Positions 33,407-48,660 of a stretch of 64,000 bases of DNA are shown piece after piece; the first letter of the stretch is position 1; every line of letters starts with the position of its first letter. This DNA comes from an uncultured Bdellovibrionales bacterium. GTDB lineage: Bacteria; Bdellovibrionota_C; UBA2361; SZUA-149; DAOLCO01. The position numbers and the translations under genes were made by a program. The notes under the pieces were generated by a model, which had not been told where the DNA came from, did no database searches, and saw only the letters and a program-made list of their open reading frames with translations. The stretch is from contig CAYGUX010000007.1 in NCBI GenBank assembly GCA_964353175.1, positions 12,088-76,087 of the forward strand, written 5' to 3'.

Positions 33407-35623
33407 TTAGCCGACTCTTTTACTTGGATTACTAACTTTGATACACTCCTTAAAACCAGAGGTGTCTTGCCTAACGAGAATAAGGCTAGATGGATAACTA
33501 CCACCTGATCTCTTAGCTCTAAAAGTAGGTCTATTTCCATTGGTATTACCCACAAACTTAAGCGTCTCGAGTACCGTATCTCCAGCTGAGCCACTTTCGA
33601 CCATAGTCGCTGAACCTATTTTACCTGATCTAGATGAGCCAAAAAGCACCACTAACTTGCCATCTCCTTCCGATATTGGTTTCCAAACAAATCCACTTTC
33701 TTGATTCTCGATATTAGATGTCCCATTGCAGGAAATTCTTTGTATCGCATTAGAATCAGTACTTATTGTGCTTTCAGAATTAGTAGTTGTACTTGAGCTA
33801 TTAGAACTCGGAGCGGAACTAATAACCGTCTCCACTAACGGAATATCTCCTGGGACACCAAAAGGCACGCTAATCGCTGGTAGTGGGGCATTCCTAATAA
33901 AGAAGTATCCTTGGCCTGAAATTATGCGCCAAACACCTAATGACTGCTTCAAAATCCCCCGTCTAAATCCAGAAAATGCAAGGTCTCCTTCTAGTCCCCA
34001 TTGAAAAGCAGGATTAACTTTAGATACCTCTCTCGAATAATAGTATTTAAATCCACTGATATCTCTCTCTACAACTGCTTCCACTATCCCATCGCCATTT
34101 AAATCGTATAGATGAGGAATGTCAGATTCTAAGCCATAAAGATAAGGCTCTAAAGCTAATCCATCAGCTGAACGTGACAACCAAAGCAAACCTTGTGGCA
34201 CTGCCCTGACTACAGTAGAATCAGCACGCCCATCTCCATCTACGTCCCCAATCAATATAGTATCATCAGCAAATCCCCAATGATAAGGTTCAATTGCGAT
34301 GTTCCCAGATGCTAAGGGTAACCAAAGTAATAAATTTACTCCGTTCTCGCTTGGTACTGAGCGGACTACAGATAAATCAGTCCGCTTATCCCCATCATAA
34401 TCAGCCGGTACTATCTTGTCTCCACTTAACCCATATTTCAACAAAGTGATCCTTGGAACTGGCGATTGAGCGCCAGACAAATGTAAATACCAACTTAATG
34501 ATCCTGCATCTGATCTAACGCTGCCGAAATCAGCTTTCAAGTCACCATCAAAGTCTGTATTTATATAAGATTCACCCGCAGGCAATATAGGATTTTTAAA
34601 AGTTGTGCTTAATGCACTAGAACGAAGACTAATAAACTCCGCGTTACTCGCTTCACCCCTTCTTCTAACTAGCACCAAGTCAGAAAGAAAGTCACCGTCT
34701 AGGTCACTTTGTATGGGTGCTATATCGCCTAAACCTAAACTTTCGCTAGAAGGTTTAGCGCCTAAACTCCCATAATTAACAGAGGAGGCACTTGCGCCAT
34801 CTTTTATGTACCACATGGCTTCCTTTGGCCGATATAGAATTGGTGTGTATTGGCTCCCGCTTAAAATGGGTGCGCCCATTGCAATATCTCCTGGAAGACC
34901 AAACTGGAAAGAACTAATGGTAGTATCAATTCCCCTAATAAACCATTCTCCAGTTTCAGGCCTAAACAGTCCAAATAAGGATCGACCTAGATCACTTTTA
35001 ACACCATGGATAGGTTGATCACCGAGTAAACCAAAGGAAATTTCTTCTATCTCTGCGGATGAAGTTCTATATATAAATTTCGAACCACCACTAGCCTTAT
35101 CACGTCGATAGACACCAATATTAACTGAACCATCACCATCGACGTCGATTGGATAAGGAATATCTCCGATTGAACCAAACTGGATGGTGTCTGTCACACC
35201 AGTTACTGTGCCGCTAGAGACATAGGCTATATACCAAGTTTGATTGGAAGGTCTGAAAACTGCATAATCAGAATATGAATTCCCGTCATAATCTCCAACG
35301 ACAGGAATATCACCACTTGCCCCCCAATTTTTAGAATTATTGCCTATAGATCGACAATGATGCCAAACTCCAAAGCTGCGATCAAATTCAGTTAAGGTAG
35401 TTTCAATAGTAGAAAAAAAATGGCCATTTTGGGGAACCGTAAACTTTCCACCACAATTTAAACTTTGAGTCCTACCAGCTCCATCTAAGTATGAGGACAC
35501 ACCATTAAGAGATAAAGAGAATCGACCAAGGGAACTAGGATCTAAAAAAGACTCCCCGTATAAATTTGAACATATAAACATGCTCAATAAAGTAAATACT
35601 TTGATCTTCATAAATATGCGCAT
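33407..35623 (-). CDS. Secreted FG-GAP/VCBS-like beta-propeller repeat protein with a distinct ~90-aa C-terminal domain
   Basis: Signal peptide. Several DxDGDxxxDxxVxRxSxxxWY repeats, paralogous to the C-terminus of the 6886..9687 subtilase. The C-terminal FVWKPISEGDGKLVVL block is shared with the 47632..48660 protein. Confidence 0.75.
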   Translation of the reverse strand: MRIFMKIKVFTLLSMFICSNLYGESFLDPSSLGRFSLSLNGVSSYLDGAGRTQSLNCGGKFTVPQNGHFFSTIETTLTEFDRSFGVWHHCRSIGNNSKNWGASGDIPVVGDYDGNSYSDYAVFRPSNQTWYIAYVSSGTVTGVTDTIQFGSIGDIPYPIDVDGDGSVNIGVYRRDKASGGSKFIYRTSSAEIEEISFGLLGDQPIHGVKSDLGRSLFGLFRPETGEWFIRGIDTTISSFQFGLPGDIAMGAPILSGSQYTPILYRPKEAMWYIKDGASASSVNYGSLGAKPSSESLGLGDIAPIQSDLDGDFLSDLVLVRRRGEASNAEFISLRSSALSTTFKNPILPAGESYINTDFDGDLKADFGSVRSDAGSLSWYLHLSGAQSPVPRITLLKYGLSGDKIVPADYDGDKRTDLSVVRSVPSENGVNLLLWLPLASGNIAIEPYHWGFADDTILIGDVDGDGRADSTVVRAVPQGLLWLSRSADGLALEPYLYGLESDIPHLYDLNGDGIVEAVVERDISGFKYYYSREVSKVNPAFQWGLEGDLAFSGFRRGILKQSLGVWRIISGQGYFFIRNAPLPAISVPFGVPGDIPLVETVISSAPSSNSSSTTTNSESTISTDSNAIQRISCNGTSNIENQESGFVWKPISEGDGKLVVLFGSSRSGKIGSATMVESGSAGDTVLETLKFVGNTNGNRPTFRAKRSGGSYPSSLILVRQDTSGFKECIKVSNPSKRVG

Positions 35624-39254: not shown

Positions 39255-39878
39255 ATGAATTCAGTTTTAGAGCCCAAAATTTACGGAAAGAAAATAATTG
39301 ATCAAATTATCTTCAGTTATCAATTAATTGACAGCGCGAAAGAAGAAGCAACAACCATTTTATCTGAGGCTAAACTCAGGGCAGAGAAAATAGTGCAATC
39401 AGGATTCCAAAGCGGACTGTTAAGTGGTTGTCAGGTAGTTTATCAAAAACTTTGTAATTCAAGCAATCTCTATGAAGATAATGCTATTAAACTAGAAACT
39501 ACAATTTTTAGAATTTGCAATAAGATACTCACAGAAATACTTGTAGATGAAAGCCTAAAATCTAGTCTAAGCCTTCTACAAGAAAGAATAAAAATTGAGA
39601 TTATTGCCCTAACTAATCAACTTGATTCCAAGGATACTAAAATAATACTAGAAGTTTGTGCTTTTACCTCTAAGGAAGAGATCGAATCTATCGAACAAGA
39701 GATTAAACATATTACAGTCAAGATAAATTCAGAACTAAAACCAGGTACATTTAAACTAATAACTAAGTATGGAGAAATCGAATCCAATCCATTAATATAT
39801 GTAACAGATCTACTAGTACATTTGAAAACTAAAGGTATCTTAAAAGATCTATCAGAAGAGATTCTCATCAATGGATAA
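39255..39878 (+). CDS. FliH/YscL-like ATPase-regulator protein (putative)
   Basis: The ~200-aa helical protein overlaps the downstream FliI-like ATPase by 8 bp. The EEA..IL.EA...AE.I...G.Q.G region resembles the FliH N-terminal region. The similarity is weak, so the call is based mainly on context. Confidence 0.45.
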   Translation: MNSVLEPKIYGKKIIDQIIFSYQLIDSAKEEATTILSEAKLRAEKIVQSGFQSGLLSGCQVVYQKLCNSSNLYEDNAIKLETTIFRICNKILTEILVDESLKSSLSLLQERIKIEIIALTNQLDSKDTKIILEVCAFTSKEEIESIEQEIKHITVKINSELKPGTFKLITKYGEIESNPLIYVTDLLVHLKTKGILKDLSEEILING

Positions 39879-41187
39879 CCTAAGTCTCAGTATCAAAGAC
39901 TATAAAAAGAATAAGGTTATTGGCAAGGTAACTTCTTCATCAGGAGCCATCATTACAGCAGAATTGCCTACGGTAGGCATAGGAGATATCGTCACAATTG
40001 AATTACCTACAGGCCCGGTAAAAGCAGAGGTATTAAGTTTTAAAGATTATAAGGTCAATCTAGCTCCCTATTCACTAATAAGGGGTCTGGTACCTGGAGC
40101 TAAAGTTACTAGTAATTCATTTACAGAAGACATTTTCTTAAGAAATAATATCGTTGGAAGCCTCACTGATGCAAGTGGCAATGTTATCATCCCCGCCCGA
40201 GCAACTTCTAGTATAGATCTCGTTGGAAGTTATCCAATTAACATAAATAAATCTCATCTCATTCATACTGAAACAATTCAGGAACCCTTGTGGACTGGAA
40301 TTCCGAGTATTGATACTTTTACTACGATAGGTAAGGGGCAAAAACTTATGCTTCTAGCTGAACCAGGTTTAGGAAAGTCGTCTCTACTCACTTCTCTCTG
40401 TAAACATATACAAGTTGACTTAATTGTCATAGCACTTATCGGCGAACGCACTAGAGAGGTCATTGAGTTCCATCAAAATTTAATTAAAAATGACGGTGAC
40501 AAAAGAACTATTGTAGTAAGTGCGACAAGTGACTCATCTCCTTTAGTAAAGAAACAAGCAGCCTTAACTTCAATTCGCATCGCTGAAATTGCTAAAGAAA
40601 AAGGCTTAGATGTTTTTCTCGGCTTTGACTCACTTACTAGATATATTCGATCTATAAGAGACATAGGACTAGCCGCCGAACAGCTACCAATTCGAAGAGG
40701 CTATCCTGCTAGTGTGTTTGAAGAGATGCCGAGATACATTGAGCGAGCTGGGAATTTCAAGACTGGATCAATCACAGCCCTTTATACGATGTTGAGCGCC
40801 GGCGATCTAGATGAAGACCCACTAATAGAGGAAATAAAAGGGCTCACAGATGGTCATATTATCCTAAGTAAGAATCTAGCAGAACAGGGCATTTTCCCCG
40901 CTATCGATATAGTTAAATCATTATCTAGAGTAGCAGATCGCTTTTTTACTATCGAAGACCAACAGATAATACGAGCAATTAAAAACAAGTATAAGAGCCT
41001 AAATGAGAATAAACAACTTTTAATATTAGGAGGGGCTGAAAAAAAAGTAGAAGATAATAAAATATTATTAGAGAAGTTCTACAACATCCTACAAGATCGA
41101 CTTGTTAATATTAAGGAGGTCTCCATGCGGACTAAACTCCTACAGGAGCTACTCTCCTGCTTAAATGACCCAAATATAAGAGCCTAA
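39871..41187 (+). CDS. Flagellar/type III secretion-type ATPase (FliI/YscN/InvC family, F1-ATPase alpha/beta-like)
   Basis: Walker A (AEPGLGKSSLL). Signature blocks LIGERTREV, SLTRY, GYPASVF, ITALYTMLSAGDLDEDP, DGHIILSKNLAEQGIFPAIDI and SLSR closely match FliI/YscN as recalled. Confidence 0.85.
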   Translation: MDNLSLSIKDYKKNKVIGKVTSSSGAIITAELPTVGIGDIVTIELPTGPVKAEVLSFKDYKVNLAPYSLIRGLVPGAKVTSNSFTEDIFLRNNIVGSLTDASGNVIIPARATSSIDLVGSYPININKSHLIHTETIQEPLWTGIPSIDTFTTIGKGQKLMLLAEPGLGKSSLLTSLCKHIQVDLIVIALIGERTREVIEFHQNLIKNDGDKRTIVVSATSDSSPLVKKQAALTSIRIAEIAKEKGLDVFLGFDSLTRYIRSIRDIGLAAEQLPIRRGYPASVFEEMPRYIERAGNFKTGSITALYTMLSAGDLDEDPLIEEIKGLTDGHIILSKNLAEQGIFPAIDIVKSLSRVADRFFTIEDQQIIRAIKNKYKSLNENKQLLILGGAEKKVEDNKILLEKFYNILQDRLVNIKEVSMRTKLLQELLSCLNDPNIRA

Positions 41188-41293
41188 TTTTACTGAGAAA
41201 ACTTAGTATAGCCCTGAAGTATTAAGAACTTCTCCTATTCGGTCGATTTTAGACTAAGAAAATTTCCTAACTCAAATTAGAGGCAACATAATA

Positions 41294-41839
41294 ATGAATA
41301 AAGTCTGCTGTAAAGGCTTTACCTTAATAGAAATAATGGTAGCAATTGCAATTTTCGCAATTGTAATTACCACTGCAACAAGCTCAATCAATAGTTACCA
41401 AAAATTAAATCATGGTGGCGAAATTAGGTCAGAAGCAAGTCAAGCAGCACAATCAATAATAGATCAGATTCGAGGTATTGATGTTAAGTCTTTGCCAACA
41501 AGCGGAGACGGTACACCAGTGGAAATCACAATGAATTCGAATAGAATGTACTCTGTAGAAACTATATATTGTACTAACTCAAGTATTTGCAACTCACCAA
41601 GCGTGCGGCAAATAGCGGTTGAAGTATATCATAGAGATGCCCTTGCTTATACCACAGAAGTAATTTTTACGGATTTTGGAGCCGCTCCAGGAAGCAATTA
41701 CTCTGCGACACCAACACCTGTGTTTACACCGACACCAGCTCCCTCAACCAGCGTGACTCCTACAGCAACTACATCCTATACACCAACACCTACGCCTACA
41801 CCCAAAAAAAAGAAAAAATGTAAAACGTGGAAATGCTAA
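41294..41839 (+). CDS. Type IV pilus minor pilin, PilV-like, with a Thr/Pro-rich C-terminal tail ending KKKKKCKTWKC
   Basis: Class III (prepilin) signal KGFTLIEIMVAIAIF with Glu at position +5 of the mature protein (E+5). The following SQAAQSIIDQIR region resembles PilV. Confidence 0.75.
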   Translation: MNKVCCKGFTLIEIMVAIAIFAIVITTATSSINSYQKLNHGGEIRSEASQAAQSIIDQIRGIDVKSLPTSGDGTPVEITMNSNRMYSVETIYCTNSSICNSPSVRQIAVEVYHRDALAYTTEVIFTDFGAAPGSNYSATPTPVFTPTPAPSTSVTPTATTSYTPTPTPTPKKKKKCKTWKC

Positions 41840-41840
41840 G

Positions 41841-42281
41841 ATGATAAATTCTAAACAAGCAGGTTTTAGCATTTTAGAACTACTAGCAGTACTTGTCATA
41901 ATGGGAATATTGTCCGCTAGTGCGATGAGCAATTTAAAAGAAATTAATAGGCCATTAACAAATGCTTCATTTGAAATTACTCATTTTTTACGCCTTGCAC
42001 GAGCTAGAGGAATCTCGCAGACTAGTTTTATAAAAGTAGCACCTGCCTCCGCCTTTAAAATCTCTACCCACTCAGGCGACTCTTGCGCAACTGCTACAAG
42101 CGCAATAAATGATTTATCACTTAATCTTCCAGATAATACAAATCTTCTCGCAACAGATTGGGAGATATGTTTTACACCAAGGGGACTAGCACCTAACTCT
42201 ACCGCATTCACCATTAGAGATGAACATGCATCCACACGAACAGTAGAGATTGCCTTAGGCGGTGGAGTTAGAATGCAATGA
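41841..42281 (+). CDS. Type IV pilus / T2SS minor (pseudo)pilin, FimT/GspH-like
   Basis: Prepilin signal AGFSILELLAVLVIMGILSA. The length and the ARARGISQ region resemble the GspH/FimT family. Confidence 0.7.
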   Translation: MINSKQAGFSILELLAVLVIMGILSASAMSNLKEINRPLTNASFEITHFLRLARARGISQTSFIKVAPASAFKISTHSGDSCATATSAINDLSLNLPDNTNLLATDWEICFTPRGLAPNSTAFTIRDEHASTRTVEIALGGGVRMQ

Positions 42282-43165
42282 CTGAAAACAACCCACTTAA
42301 TCGTCGTGGTTTTACTTTAATTGAGTTAATGGTCTCAATCTTACTACTTAGTTTAACTTTAATGATGCTGGTAGGATACGTTGTTGGTTTACAGAATGCA
42401 TTCTTTAACGACGTTGTAAGAACTAGAATTAATAGTAATCTACGCACTGCCTTGGATATTTTAGCAATGAATATTCGGCAGTCAGGTGAGAACCTAGGAG
42501 GTGCTTTTCCGGCAATGGTATTAGAGGACGATGGCGATGGAACGGGCAAACATATAGTTCTAAGACGAAATCTAATTTCTGAAGTTTTAACCATTTGTGA
42601 ATCCCTGAGTTCAGGAGACTCTACCGTACTTATCTCAACGACCAGCAATCCTACTCCAGCTTGCGTATTTTCAAATGTCAATAATATGTACAATACTTTT
42701 AGATCAGAGAGGACAAAGGAAGGCGGTGAAATAAGGTTATTCCTATATAACTCTACCGCAAAGTCTGGCGAATACGTTGATTATACCAACGAAGGGACTA
42801 CTTCAGGCAAATACAGCCTAAACATATCTTCTCCAACAGCTAACTACCCTGCAAATACTTCGTACATTTACTATATAGAAGAATATGACTTCTCACTAGA
42901 GGAGGCTACTAGCACACTTAATCTTACTCGGGATGGGGAAGATGATCTTACTGAACCTGTTGCATTTTCCATAACTGCGTTTGACATCGAATTACATATG
43001 AAAGATGGATCTATTCTAAATACTCTTCTGCCAAACACTGGCCCAACATGGAAGGATTTACAATATATCGCTATAGAATTAGAAGGGAGCGAAAATAGAA
43101 AGTCACAAGTATATTCAACTTCTGTGAGCGGAAATTACTATCCAAGAAATATTTTGTCTCGGTAA
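42278..43165 (+). CDS. Type IV pilus assembly minor pilin, PilW-like
   Basis: Prepilin signal RRGFTLIELMVSILLL. The downstream LRTALDILAMNIRQSGEN region matches the PilW pattern. It overlaps the previous gene by 4 bp. Confidence 0.7.
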   Translation: MTENNPLNRRGFTLIELMVSILLLSLTLMMLVGYVVGLQNAFFNDVVRTRINSNLRTALDILAMNIRQSGENLGGAFPAMVLEDDGDGTGKHIVLRRNLISEVLTICESLSSGDSTVLISTTSNPTPACVFSNVNNMYNTFRSERTKEGGEIRLFLYNSTAKSGEYVDYTNEGTTSGKYSLNISSPTANYPANTSYIYYIEEYDFSLEEATSTLNLTRDGEDDLTEPVAFSITAFDIELHMKDGSILNTLLPNTGPTWKDLQYIAIELEGSENRKSQVYSTSVSGNYYPRNILSR

Positions 43166-43169
43166 TCAT

Positions 43170-45062
43170 ATGAATAAAAATGAAGATGGTTTTGCATTAT
43201 TAGCAGTACTACTATTGGTCACAGTACTCCTCGCACTATTTAGTACCTACATGGTTGTGACTAAAACTGAACTAGGAATAGTAAAAACATCTCGTGATAG
43301 TGCAAGTGGATTTAATGCTGCAGAATCGGGATTAAACCTTAGAGCGGAAGAAGTAAAAAACATATTTCTTGACTATGACAAGCCAGACGGAACTTCCCCT
43401 ACTTCCATAGAAGATTGTGACTCAGGCTCAACGGGTGAAGGAGATTATGAATGTAAATCCTATACCTTTGAAAATAAACATACTGCAGTTACCTATGTCG
43501 ATGAGGAAGCTAACAATCCCATCACTACAATAATTCCACCTGGAGAGCCTTTTGCTGGGCTGAACACTCAAGAATATAGATATACTGTACGCTCGGTTGG
43601 ACGAAATAATCAAATGAGCAATGAAGCTATATTAGATTTAACTTTTAAAAGTAGGTTAGTACCGCTATTTCAGTTCGCAATTTTTTTCCAGGATGATCTT
43701 GAGTTTTTTAATGGAGCAACCTTAACCGTTACTGGCCCTGTACATACGAATGGCAATCTCTACCTCGCGCCGCAAGATGGAGGTACCACAAATATAGATG
43801 GTCAAACTACTATAGCTGGTACTTTTTTTAGAGGTCAGAAGTCTCAATCAAGTTGTTCAGGATATCAAGGTACGGCTAGAGCAAAAAACCCAACATCATA
43901 CACCACCTTGCCCGCTTGTTCATCCAGCAGAACAGCAGTAACTAATGTTTCTGCATGGAATGGAAACATAGAGCTAGGTGTTGAACCTGTCACCGTTCCT
44001 TCCCCAGAGGATTTCGCTCCCTTTGGTGGGGGTGAATTTTGGGATAGAGCAGACCTACGTTTAGTTTTACGTTTAAATGCTGCAGGCAATCCTAACACCT
44101 CCATATCATCAACAGGTATTGAAGTAGTAAATGTTGATGGTAGTAGCGATACCGTCTCTACGGGGTACTTACATTCTAGTGCGAATTGTGGTGGATTAGT
44201 AAGAACTGGTGCTGGCCCCTTACTTTCAATAGGAACCCAAGGCCCCGGAACATCGGGGAGCCAGCTTAGATTGTTCAGAGAATACCAATCTAATAGCACA
44301 ATTAATAGCTATCAAAGAACACTCGAAGTTGATATGCGAGCGCTACTAAACTGTATAAAAAAATATCCAGAGATTATGGGCGGTAGATTATTAAATGATG
44401 ATACTGAAGATGGATTAGTATTTCACTTAACTATAGATGGCCCGTTGAGTGGGGCTAGCCAGAATAATTATAGCGTTAGAGTTAGAAATGCCTCCACTCT
44501 TCAATCCAATCTGGGTGGCGCTCCAACGGTAAAAGGACTAACTTTGGTTACAGACCACGGTTTGGTTGTATGGGGAAATTACAATTCAGTCGTAGCAAGT
44601 TGGATTCCTTCGGCTCTAATGGCTGATACCCTCTGGCTATTATCAAATAGCTGGACTGACAGCGATAGCAATATTTCGGCAGTATATGATAGAGATGGGT
44701 CAGCTACTACTGTTAGAGCAGCCGTGATAAGTGGCATAAGACGAACTGGGAATGCAAATGGTGCAGCAGGAGAAGATCACGGAGTGGACACCAACGGTGG
44801 TGGTGCGATTAACGTGTTTAGATTTAATGAATGGTTTAGAGTAGGAACAGTAATCCCTGACTTTACCTACGAAGGGTCAATAGTAAGTCTCGGCGCGCCT
44901 TTAAAAAGTCAATCTACCTGGGGACCTTTTACGTATTATAGTGCTCCCAATAGAGTCTGGTCTTATGATACGAGATTCAATGATGCAGATTTACTACCTC
45001 CGATGACACCAGTTTTTGTTTACTTGCAACAAGAACTTTTTGTAAGAGATTATGAACTTTAA
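43170..45062 (+). CDS. PilX_N-domain protein (PilX/GspK-like pseudopilin lacking Glu at mature-protein position +5) with an unusually large ~560-aa C-terminal extension
   Basis: N-terminus GFALLAVLLLVTVLLALFSTYMVV...AAESGLNL matches the PilX N-terminal domain. It is the last gene of the pilin operon. Confidence 0.7.
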   Translation: MNKNEDGFALLAVLLLVTVLLALFSTYMVVTKTELGIVKTSRDSASGFNAAESGLNLRAEEVKNIFLDYDKPDGTSPTSIEDCDSGSTGEGDYECKSYTFENKHTAVTYVDEEANNPITTIIPPGEPFAGLNTQEYRYTVRSVGRNNQMSNEAILDLTFKSRLVPLFQFAIFFQDDLEFFNGATLTVTGPVHTNGNLYLAPQDGGTTNIDGQTTIAGTFFRGQKSQSSCSGYQGTARAKNPTSYTTLPACSSSRTAVTNVSAWNGNIELGVEPVTVPSPEDFAPFGGGEFWDRADLRLVLRLNAAGNPNTSISSTGIEVVNVDGSSDTVSTGYLHSSANCGGLVRTGAGPLLSIGTQGPGTSGSQLRLFREYQSNSTINSYQRTLEVDMRALLNCIKKYPEIMGGRLLNDDTEDGLVFHLTIDGPLSGASQNNYSVRVRNASTLQSNLGGAPTVKGLTLVTDHGLVVWGNYNSVVASWIPSALMADTLWLLSNSWTDSDSNISAVYDRDGSATTVRAAVISGIRRTGNANGAAGEDHGVDTNGGGAINVFRFNEWFRVGTVIPDFTYEGSIVSLGAPLKSQSTWGPFTYYSAPNRVWSYDTRFNDADLLPPMTPVFVYLQQELFVRDYEL

Positions 45063-46418: not shown

Positions 46419-46868
46419 CTATGGTGCATCTGATTTAGAGTAAGGAAGGACCGATGGTACCGGTACAGGAGTTGGAGTAGCTTCCTTAACTTCTTGAATT
46501 TCCTTTAAAATTCTATTCTTCTCTGAAATTGTTCTTCTTCTTATCTTCTCAGCTTCTTGTTTTTCCTTTTTGGCGGAATTTAAACTTGCTATGGACGAAT
46601 TTTTTTGAGCTATAATAGAAGCTTCAATTGCCCTCACTTCCTTTAATACTTCCCTACTTTCAGACAACTGGGTCTCAGACTTTTTTAACAACTGATAAGA
46701 TTGAGCCAACATGTTTTTTACTGAGGAATCACTATCCTTAAATACTTGAACATCAGGAGTATCATCAGGCAATGCAGGCGCACAACTTGACGTTGTCATA
46801 CCAATTATACATATTATAAATAATATTCTACTAGTCATACGATTCCTAAAAAATTGAGGTTCTTCCAA
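46419..46868 (-). CDS. Hypothetical coiled-coil (lipo)protein
   Basis: N-terminal hydrophobic segment with Cys, followed by Lys/Glu-rich coiled coil. Confidence 0.4.
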   Translation of the reverse strand: MEEPQFFRNRMTSRILFIICIIGMTTSSCAPALPDDTPDVQVFKDSDSSVKNMLAQSYQLLKKSETQLSESREVLKEVRAIEASIIAQKNSSIASLNSAKKEKQEAEKIRRRTISEKNRILKEIQEVKEATPTPVPVPSVLPYSKSDAP

Positions 46869-47631: not shown

Positions 47632-48660
47632 ATGAAGTGGATGATTGTTGATGAGGCAGGAGGCAAACAAGAGAAACGCGGGAGAAAATTTATGTCAGTA
47701 ACAGCAGCAACCGAAAATAGTTCAACGAACAAACCCCTTGAAATTACGAGCAATTCCTCGATAGATCAAGTTCAAACCGTCCAGGATACAGAAAATTCCA
47801 GTGGTTCAAGTTTCGACGATTTCATGAAAAGTGCCCTAGGAGCTACAGGGAAAAATCAGGTAAGTGAGGAGGAATTATTTGCCTCCTTAATAGAACAAAG
47901 ATTAAATGAGCTTTCACCAGAAGCTGCCTCATTCTATGCAGGTGAAAGGACAAAATTACAAGCTAGCATGACCAAACCCAACGGATATGTTCCTGTTGAG
48001 GAAGCAGCTCTAAAAGCTCTAAACTCGACAGTAGCAAGTGGTCAAATCACCGAAGAAGATGGCGCCAGAATCAATGGTGAGGCCTTTGCCGGAGCACAAC
48101 TTGATGATGATTTAGAGAACCTATTTGATGACAGGGGTGGCGACGGTGATACTACAATCGCTGTCGCTTCAATTGATGAAGCAATGGCGAAACTTAAACT
48201 ATTCATGGATGGCATGAAATCGGGAACTCTCACCAGCACTGATCGACCACTAAGTGCAGGAGCAACGGGAGGCCAACTTACCAATAGTGGCGGCTCTTCT
48301 GAAACGGGAGGGATACCAGGTTCAGGTTCGTCTATCTCAGGTAGTCAAGCCATAGATGGATCAGGCGGATTTGTTTGGAAACCGGTATCTGAATCCGACG
48401 GAAATTTAGTTGTATTGCTTCCAACCGAGCTAAAAGGACTCATTAGTAAAGTAGAAATACATTCTTCTTTACCACCAAGTGAGGCAAGCAAATTAGCAGA
48501 AGGGAAGTTCTCAGGAGATGATGATAATGGGGAAAGACCTCATTACAGATTCCCTAATCCTGGATCTGAATATGGAGATAATGTTCATGTCGTTGGGTAC
48601 AAAGATGATGGTACTACCGTTACATGGGAAATTGGTAATGGTGGCCAAAGATACGACTAA
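47632..48660 (+). CDS. Hypothetical Gly/Ser-rich protein with a C-terminal domain shared with the 33407..35623 FG-GAP protein; the true start may be the internal Met at ~47692
   Basis: The C-terminal GFVWKPVSESDGNLVVL ... NGERPHYRF block parallels GFVWKPISEGDGKLVVL ... NGNRPTFR in the FG-GAP protein. Confidence 0.5.
   Translation: MKWMIVDEAGGKQEKRGRKFMSVTAATENSSTNKPLEITSNSSIDQVQTVQDTENSSGSSFDDFMKSALGATGKNQVSEEELFASLIEQRLNELSPEAASFYAGERTKLQASMTKPNGYVPVEEAALKALNSTVASGQITEEDGARINGEAFAGAQLDDDLENLFDDRGGDGDTTIAVASIDEAMAKLKLFMDGMKSGTLTSTDRPLSAGATGGQLTNSGGSSETGGIPGSGSSISGSQAIDGSGGFVWKPVSESDGNLVVLLPTELKGLISKVEIHSSLPPSEASKLAEGKFSGDDDNGERPHYRFPNPGSEYGDNVHVVGYKDDGTTVTWEIGNGGQRYD

Follow-up and report, generated by a model that had tools for sequence, protein, structure and literature searches.

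Two proteins of the window end in the same domain

The window analysed here, a stretch of 64,000 nucleotides from an uncultured Bdellovibrionales bacterium (contig CAYGUX010000007.1 of assembly GCA_964353175.1, positions 12,088 to 76,087 of the forward strand), contains two genes whose products, designated carrier 1 and carrier 2, share a C-terminal domain. Both open reading frames (ORFs) named in the original prediction, 33407..35623 and 47632..48660, are present, and the domain coordinates given there are essentially those delimited below with a profile hidden Markov model (HMM), with copy 1 to be placed on the minus strand. The features concerned are:

33407..35623, minus strand: carrier 1, an exported FG-GAP/VCBS repeat protein of 738 aa (ORF and Pfam FG-GAP_3)
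33410..33697, minus strand: domain copy 1, the last ~96 residues (643-738) of the FG-GAP protein (BLASTP and HMM); pI 10.1, net charge +7
47692..48660, plus strand: carrier 2, 322 aa from its probable start (ORF, ribosome-binding site GGGAGAAA, homologue N-termini)
47803..48222, plus strand: N-terminal helical domain of carrier 2, residues 38-177 (AlphaFold2, AF2)
48364..48657, plus strand: domain copy 2, the last 98 residues of carrier 2 (BLASTP and HMM); pI 4.8, net charge -7

When the full-length carriers were compared by BLASTP, a single significant alignment was obtained, between the two C-termini (residues 644-736 of carrier 1 and 246-340 of carrier 2). It comprised 95 columns with two gaps at 34% identity (E = 4e-9, with compositional adjustment), and the remaining segments of the two proteins gave E > 2 each. 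A window-independent HMM of 92 profile positions, made from 25 homologues from other sources with the window sequences excluded, matched copy 1 over positions 1-91 (E = 1.1e-23) and copy 2 over positions 1-92 (E = 1.5e-31). As this model matches both copies across the whole profile, the similarity of the two C-termini is real, collinear and full-length. The module of ~90 aa that had been proposed for the ends of two otherwise unrelated proteins is thus borne out, and the likeness, which might have been confined to the short FVWKP block, extends beyond it over ~95 residues. No third copy was found in the window: the next six-frame HMM match had E = 1.3, and tblastn of each domain copy against the window returned itself and the other copy, and nothing else.

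Size, spread and conservation of the domain family

Searched exhaustively with the HMM, 1.84 billion cluster representatives (clusters at 50% identity) yielded 1,835 matches at E ≤ 1e-3, of which 1,071 reached E ≤ 1e-10. The source names seen for family members were all "hypothetical protein", and no precomputed Pfam domains were attached to them. No named family matched the domain in Pfam (2025 copy), NCBIfam 20.0 (which includes T9SS and PEP-CTERM type models; T9SS, type IX secretion system) or PHROGs. When 27 domain sequences were run against Pfam at E ≤ 5, two single-member noise hits were returned and nothing else; profiles from 27 and from 66 sequences, run against PDB sequences, returned no match or only noise at E ~0.9; and none of 50,697 GenBank phages was matched by tblastn with the domain or with its phage-borne copies. 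Nothing relevant came up in full-text searches of the literature, whether for the motif strings or for a sorting signal of Bdellovibrio. The earlier impression that the module corresponds to no named domain therefore holds for Pfam, NCBIfam, PHROGs, PDB sequences and, as described below, PDB folds.

The spread of the family over genomes was taken from a motif-seeded scan of one genome per species, in which the motif was restrictive, so that copy counts are lower bounds. The scan identified 66 loci, nearly all in metagenome-assembled genomes (MAGs). These belonged to Bdellovibrionota/Oligoflexia, to Kiritimatiellia, Verrucomicrobiota and Lentisphaerae, to Arenicellales sponge symbionts (Candidatus Poriferihabitaceae), to Myxococcota and Desulfobulbia-type (Desulfobacterota) MAGs, to one Moraniibacteriota (Patescibacteria) MAG and to two DPANN archaea; several genomes held at least 2-4 copies each. 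The nearest relatives of both window proteins were found in Bdellovibrionales MAGs, which by itself would make that group the probable source of the window. The domain is also encoded on 24 IMG/VR contigs.

In a diverse alignment of 66 sequences, G67 was invariant, and W5, K6, P7, S9, G13, L15, L18, R58, R62 and R96 were present in at least 90%. The conserved positions lie mostly in loops of the predicted structure, and the nearly invariant Arg sits 1-3 residues before the protein end. Conserved Cys pairs are present in several domain subfamilies, which is consistent with an oxidising compartment.

Predicted structure of the domain

Structure prediction with AF2 for the domain of copy 2 alone (model m31d15b5d767f) gave an all-beta fold of eight strands and one short helix, with a mean predicted local distance difference test score (pLDDT) of 96.1 and a predicted template modelling score (pTM) of 0.87. 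A Foldseek search of this model against the PDB produced no hit at E ≤ 1e-3. The best hits, all sub-threshold (E ≥ 0.04, TM 0.45-0.55), were sandwich folds and included the starch-binding N-domain of TVAII, the IsdH NEAT domain, expansin domain 2 and CEACAM V-set domains. By resemblance, the fold class would be an immunoglobulin-like (Ig-like) sandwich or one like those of carbohydrate-binding modules (CBMs), with no specific relative established. Matches in BFVD were to three uncharacterised tailed-phage proteins (E = 1.4e-3 to 1.6e-2, TM 0.51-0.76), which are probably homologues. Two functional candidates were considered and rejected. For a metal-binding (CopC/CrdA-like) role, the fold hits were weak and there is no conserved His, Met or Cys; for a catalytic role, nothing was found in favour besides a few conserved polar residues.

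Architectures and partner domains

The domain ended within 8 residues of the C-terminus in 280 of the 301 collected carriers (93%). Among the best 150 representatives, 44 belonged to the family of carrier 2 and 36 were small lipoproteins, the remainder being other proteins of small size or fragments, together with larger ones of several domains. The partners to which the domain is fused comprise FG-GAP, TraU, an Apiosidase-like glycosidase, Laminin_G_3, NHL, CarboxypepD_reg, Big_1 and a GDSL lipase with DUF4214 and PG_binding_1, and are typical of exported adhesins and enzymes. Exceptions to the terminal position included tandem arrays of 2-4 copies per protein (P0027, P0028, P0039, P0061, P0071 and P0085), N-proximal copies preceding enzymes (P0089, P0126 and P0143), and internal copies with 140-650 further residues downstream.

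The small lipoproteins (n = 82) consist of a lipobox, a disordered tether rich in S, A, G, T, P, D and E (median 50 residues) and the domain, and nothing else. The residue after the lipid-modified Cys was Glu or Asp in 42 of the 82; Asp or Glu at this position signals inner-membrane retention in Enterobacteria, a rule that is uncertain for the carrier phyla. Adjacent tandem pairs of such lipoprotein genes were observed at four loci (L003 5731-6727, L013 5578-7056, L030 5124-6282 and L040 5212-6282), from Kiritimatiellia, Lentisphaerae and delta-proteobacterial MAGs. In Candidatus Poriferihabitaceae (L004 4882-6261 and L007 4909-6270), the domain stands at the C-terminus of a homologue of TraU (PF06834, E = 2.6e-35), a periplasmic protein of F-type conjugation.

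Two independent phage gp5-like baseplate hubs carry Gp5_OB, a beta-helix and then the domain at the spike tip; a lysozyme domain was not detected in them. One, P0030 (L071 10001-12367), has two domain copies and lies within a T4-like baseplate cluster with gp25, gp6 and gp8 homologues, and the other (L079 3847-6282), a protein of 812 aa with one copy, is encoded on a 160-kb IMG/VR contig. The gene neighbourhoods of carriers were mostly housekeeping, and no linked machinery gene was seen in the contexts examined.

The shared segment is a previously unnamed, widespread and mobile domain of ~95 residues, all-beta and autonomously folding, which strongly prefers the C-terminus without being confined to it.

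Carrier 1, an exported FG-GAP protein

In carrier 1, a signal peptide (MRIFMKIKVFTLLSMFICSNLYG) is followed by the body of repeats, by a linker rich in Ser and Thr (about residues 600-642) and by the domain. PF13517 (FG-GAP_3) matched it in four stretches with E = 1.7e-11 and 45 bits, above the cut-off of 26.9, which places it among FG-GAP proteins. Its orthologues, at L001 and L002, are both from Bdellovibrionales MAGs. Identity to these orthologues was 58-59% in the domain, 40% in the FG-GAP body and 20-30% in the linker, and the domain is therefore the part of carrier 1 under the strongest constraint. Carrier 1 and both orthologues share a Cys in the linker and another in the last strand (RISC...ECIKV; RLTC...HCITV; RLSC...HCITV), which suggests a disulfide bond.

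Carrier 2 and its family lacking signal peptides

The longest ORF for carrier 2 encodes 342 aa (47632..48660, plus strand), and the deposited product P0172 has 339 aa. Both probably begin too far upstream, the start most likely being the ATG at 47692, since this codon is preceded by the ribosome-binding site GGGAGAAA and the N-termini of 50 homologues agree with it; the aligned homologues mostly open with Met-Glu-[Ile/Val/Ala]. The resulting protein of 322 aa has no signal peptide, no hydrophobic N-terminal segment and no Cys. It is made up of a disordered Ser/Thr-rich region (residues 1-36), a helical domain (38-177), a Gly/Ser linker (178-224) and the beta domain (225-322). In the full-length AF2 model, which drew on 51 homologues (pLDDT 81), disorder was predicted at 1-36 and 195-213 and helices at 38-49, 59-74, 76-92, 102-115, 121-134 and 161-177, mostly with pLDDT > 90. 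Neither the helical nor the beta half had a Foldseek match in the PDB at E ≤ 1e-3, and the helical domain had no Pfam match.

The helical domain defines a family centred on Bdellovibrionota, and an HMM of this region found 121 of the collected carriers. Sixty-nine homologues of carrier 2 were all named hypothetical, and none had a Pfam domain. No signal peptide was found among the 121 members, bar one doubtful case. The two window proteins had been described as secreted; this stands for the FG-GAP protein, with its signal peptide, and finds no such support for carrier 2. Members of the family are rich in Ser, Thr, Asn and Gln over their first 40 residues and poor in Cys (0.16% of residues vs 1.15% in other carriers), 94 of the 121 being Cys-free.

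One subgroup of the family has a Ser/Gly-rich extra tail after the domain and FLFKP in place of FLWKP, because of which the genome motif scan could not find it. In three of three contexts (L072 6001-9273, L101 2788-6269 and the context of P0224), members of this subgroup are encoded directly upstream of motA-motB on the same strand; two of them, P0223 and P0224, are 52% identical to each other. With the exception of this subgroup, no conserved gene neighbour of the carrier 2 family was seen across 16 loci and nine annotated contexts. Upstream of carrier 2 in the window, beside trmB, pdxH and a PNP_UDP_1-like gene, lies an ORF of 149 aa (46419..46868, minus strand) with a lipoprotein-like N-terminus, a charged helical body and no family match; this ORF is syntenic with L027 and L037.

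The charge of the domain divides its carriers along the same line. In the carrier 2 family the domain is acidic, with a median pI of 5.4, whereas it is basic in all other carriers, where the median is 9.4; signal-peptide and lipoprotein carriers likewise have a median of 9.4. The two window copies, with net charges of +7 and -7, fall on either side.

A possible role in binding to the cell envelope

The domain may well be a binding or targeting module for a cell-envelope or cell-surface ligand. We infer this function from the mix of partner domains, the lipoproteins made of tether and domain only, the basic copies on exported carriers, the conserved loop residues and the position on phage spikes. 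The tether-only lipoproteins fit a binding module because theirs is the architecture of a tethered binding domain, without a passenger to sort. The copies at spike tips favour envelope binding because it is there that the virion comes into contact with the envelope of its host, and basic domains on exported carriers are as expected for the binding of anionic envelope polymers. The Cys pairs of several subfamilies, the sub-threshold likeness to carbohydrate-binding and Ig-like sandwiches and the strong constraint on the domain in carrier 1 also count in favour of this role. Most of the carriers, rather than all, would be extracytoplasmic, and our guess at the ligand is peptidoglycan or another anionic glycan.

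In such a scheme, evolution would have appended the domain to many extracytoplasmic proteins of unrelated kinds, nearly always at the far C-terminus and preceded by a disordered linker. The domain would hold the fused FG-GAP propeller, enzyme, phage spike or tethered lipid anchor onto a widespread ligand of the envelope or surface, for which an anionic glycan (peptidoglycan, for example, or a polysaccharide of the outer surface) is the probable candidate. The recognition site would form from the conserved loops WKPxSExDG, NGxRP and [YF]RFxxPG, together with the Arg 1-3 residues from the end.

Several observations weigh against this assignment. Placement at the C-terminus in 93% of carriers is needed by a sorting signal and not by a binding module. 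The carrier 2 family has no signal peptide and its domains are acidic, so that either these proteins exit the cytoplasm by some other route or the domain has a role within the cell as well. None of the fold matches reaches significance (best PDB hit at E = 0.04; TM 0.45-0.55), and "CBM-like" denotes resemblance only; an exposed conserved surface patch on the model is assumed. The gene neighbourhoods, being mostly housekeeping, carry no functional hint.

Other explanations of the shared domain were weighed on the same evidence. That the domain serves protein-protein interaction or oligomerisation is unlikely, though it would account well for the clean charge split (median pI 5.4 vs 9.4; -7 and +7 in the window): the acidic signal-less copy might pair with a basic lipoprotein copy, and no envelope polymer would be bound. 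Several paralogues of acidic and basic kinds occur per genome, lipoprotein genes lie in tandem pairs (L003, L013, L030 and L040), the subgroup upstream of motA-motB in three of three contexts points to a protein machine as partner, and Ig-like domains often mediate protein contacts. The fusions to phage spikes, glycosidase and lipase are, however, better explained by substrate or surface targeting, and many genomes outside Bdellovibrionota hold the basic lipoprotein type only. Quite unlikely is a C-terminal sorting or secretion domain of the T9SS kind, in which an export or attachment machine would recognise the sandwich before cleavage or covalent linkage of the passenger to the surface. T9SS C-terminal domains are beta-sandwiches of ~80-100 residues, and the domain resembles them in its extreme C-terminal position in 280 of 301 carriers, with the protein ending 1-3 residues past a near-invariant Arg, in the low-complexity linker ahead of it, in its many unrelated passengers and in the presence of several carriers per genome. 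Nevertheless, the T9SS and other sorting-signal models in NCBIfam and Pfam do not match; lipoproteins without any passenger make up 36 of the best 150 representatives (82 collected overall); and there are proteins with 2-4 tandem copies or with internal copies followed by 140-650 residues. Copies on phage baseplate hubs, in monoderm-like Patescibacteria and in DPANN archaea would not be expected to share one machine. One large class, the carrier 2 family, lacks the Sec signal that a T9SS-type system requires, no conserved neighbouring machinery gene was seen in the contexts examined, and the copy number per genome is low (2-4 by the motif scan, a lower bound). Between the roles that the original prediction had left side by side, binding or anchoring thus appears to fit better, and a sorting or secretion signal is weakened by the lipoproteins, the tandem and internal copies, the spikes and the occurrence in Patescibacteria and DPANN.

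A passive structural spacer or stabilising cap, akin to an Ig-like stalk without a specific ligand, is very improbable. The generic sandwich fold, with no significant match to any binding domain, would suit it, and Ig-like spacers are common in surface proteins; but ten invariant or near-invariant positions, W5, K6, P7, S9, G13, R58, R62, G67 and R96 among them, are mostly polar or aromatic and lie in loops of a family otherwise 30-50% identical, the domain is better conserved than the rest of the FG-GAP protein, and there is nothing to space at a free C-terminus or where the domain is the sole folded part of a lipoprotein. Chance or compositional likeness of two low-complexity C-termini, which the Ser/Gly-rich linkers adjoining the domain in both window proteins might have suggested, has a negligible probability: it is refuted by the BLASTP match under compositional adjustment (E = 4e-9), the full-length HMM matches (E = 1e-23 and 1e-31) and more than 1,000 homologues at E ≤ 1e-10, and the fold of the domain is confidently predicted.

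A further, improbable reading is that the carrier 2 family, with its disordered Ser/Thr-rich N-terminus, helical domain, acidic domain copy and near lack of Cys, is exported without Sec, for example via the flagellar type III apparatus, and that the domain docks such proteins, together with the basic copies on lipoproteins, onto the cell wall or onto one another in the vicinity of envelope machines, the flagellar stator for instance. If true, this would be a periplasmic anchoring system of a new class in predatory bacteria, which phages would have put to use again at their spike tips.

Comparison with known systems

In its behaviour the domain comes nearest to accessory sandwiches at the C-terminus, either CBM or cell-wall-binding modules or, as regards position, the T9SS C-terminal domain (Por_Secre_tail, TIGR04183/PF18962; type B, TIGR04131), likewise a terminal sandwich of ~80-100 residues that follows a linker on unrelated exported carriers, several per genome. 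The analogy drawn earlier is apt as regards the extreme C-terminal position, but neither full window protein had a match to these profiles (hmmscan against Pfam and NCBIfam, E ≤ 1). The present carriers lie outside Bacteroidota, and the domain is found, besides, as the sole domain of lipoproteins, in tandem, internally, on phage spikes and on Sec-less proteins. Whereas a T9SS domain is always last and accompanied by a Sec signal, the present one is terminal in 93% of carriers and includes a 121-member family without a signal peptide. A T9SS is not known in the carrier lineages (Bdellovibrionota, the Planctomycetes-Verrucomicrobia-Chlamydiae group, Patescibacteria and DPANN).

The comparisons with PEP-CTERM and LysM made at the outset are not upheld by profile or by architecture. 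PEP-CTERM, MYXO-CTERM, GlyGly-CTERM and LPXTG signals combine a motif, a transmembrane helix and a basic tail, whereas the last 96 residues here are a predicted soluble beta domain with no hydrophobic helix, and no NCBIfam model of the PEP-CTERM type matched the window proteins. LysM (PF01476) and other named wall-binding domains gave no Pfam match, and the predicted all-beta domain differs from the beta-alpha-alpha-beta fold of LysM.

CBM and cell-wall-binding sandwiches (CBM34 of TVAII, expansin domain 2/CBM63 and SusE/F-like domains) are similar in being small all-beta modules on glycosidases, lipases and adhesin-like proteins. They provided the top Foldseek neighbours, and the present domain has a conserved Trp and charged loop residues; the structural matches are, however, sub-significant (E ≥ 0.04, TM ≤ 0.55), and there is no sequence relation. 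The small-lipoprotein class, with its lipobox, disordered tether of ~50 aa and one globular domain, recalls LpoB, in which a lipid anchor and a long disordered linker allow a small globular domain to reach its partner across the periplasm, but the globular domain of the present family is unrelated. Finally, the position of the domain after Gp5_OB and a beta-helix in two hubs resembles the tips of phage gp5 and type VI secretion VgrG-type spikes. This is a minority context, most carriers being cellular and without contractile-tail genes nearby.

The domain thus represents a new family in a well-known class, that of extracytoplasmic beta-sandwich modules, and does not overturn current understanding. 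The family, of ~1,800 clusters, has had no name, structure or assigned function because nearly all its members come from uncultured organisms, and it merits an entry in domain databases. It is concentrated where life involves attachment to other cells, as in predatory Bdellovibrionota and sponge symbionts, in Patescibacteria and DPANN episymbionts, and on phage spikes. Should the domain be a binding module, its ligand would tell what these attaching organisms hold on to, and the domain would give a ready-made targeting tag. The signal-less, Cys-poor subfamily linked to motAB raises a minor question of its own, namely by what routes proteins are exported in Bdellovibrionota.

Other genes of the window

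Between the two carrier genes, the plus strand of the region 39255..45062 contains a gene for an ATPase of the FliI/SctN family (39871..41187), which scored 349.9 bits on TIGR01026, under the cut-off of 379.5 and under all FliI/SctN equivalog cut-offs. It is preceded by a weakly SctL/FliH-like ORF (39255..39878, plus strand, E = 3.3e-4) and directly followed by three N_methyl genes of the prepilin type (41294..43165), including a GspH-like one, and by an ORF of 630 aa without a family. A type III-type ATPase adjoining pseudopilin genes is an unusual juxtaposition.

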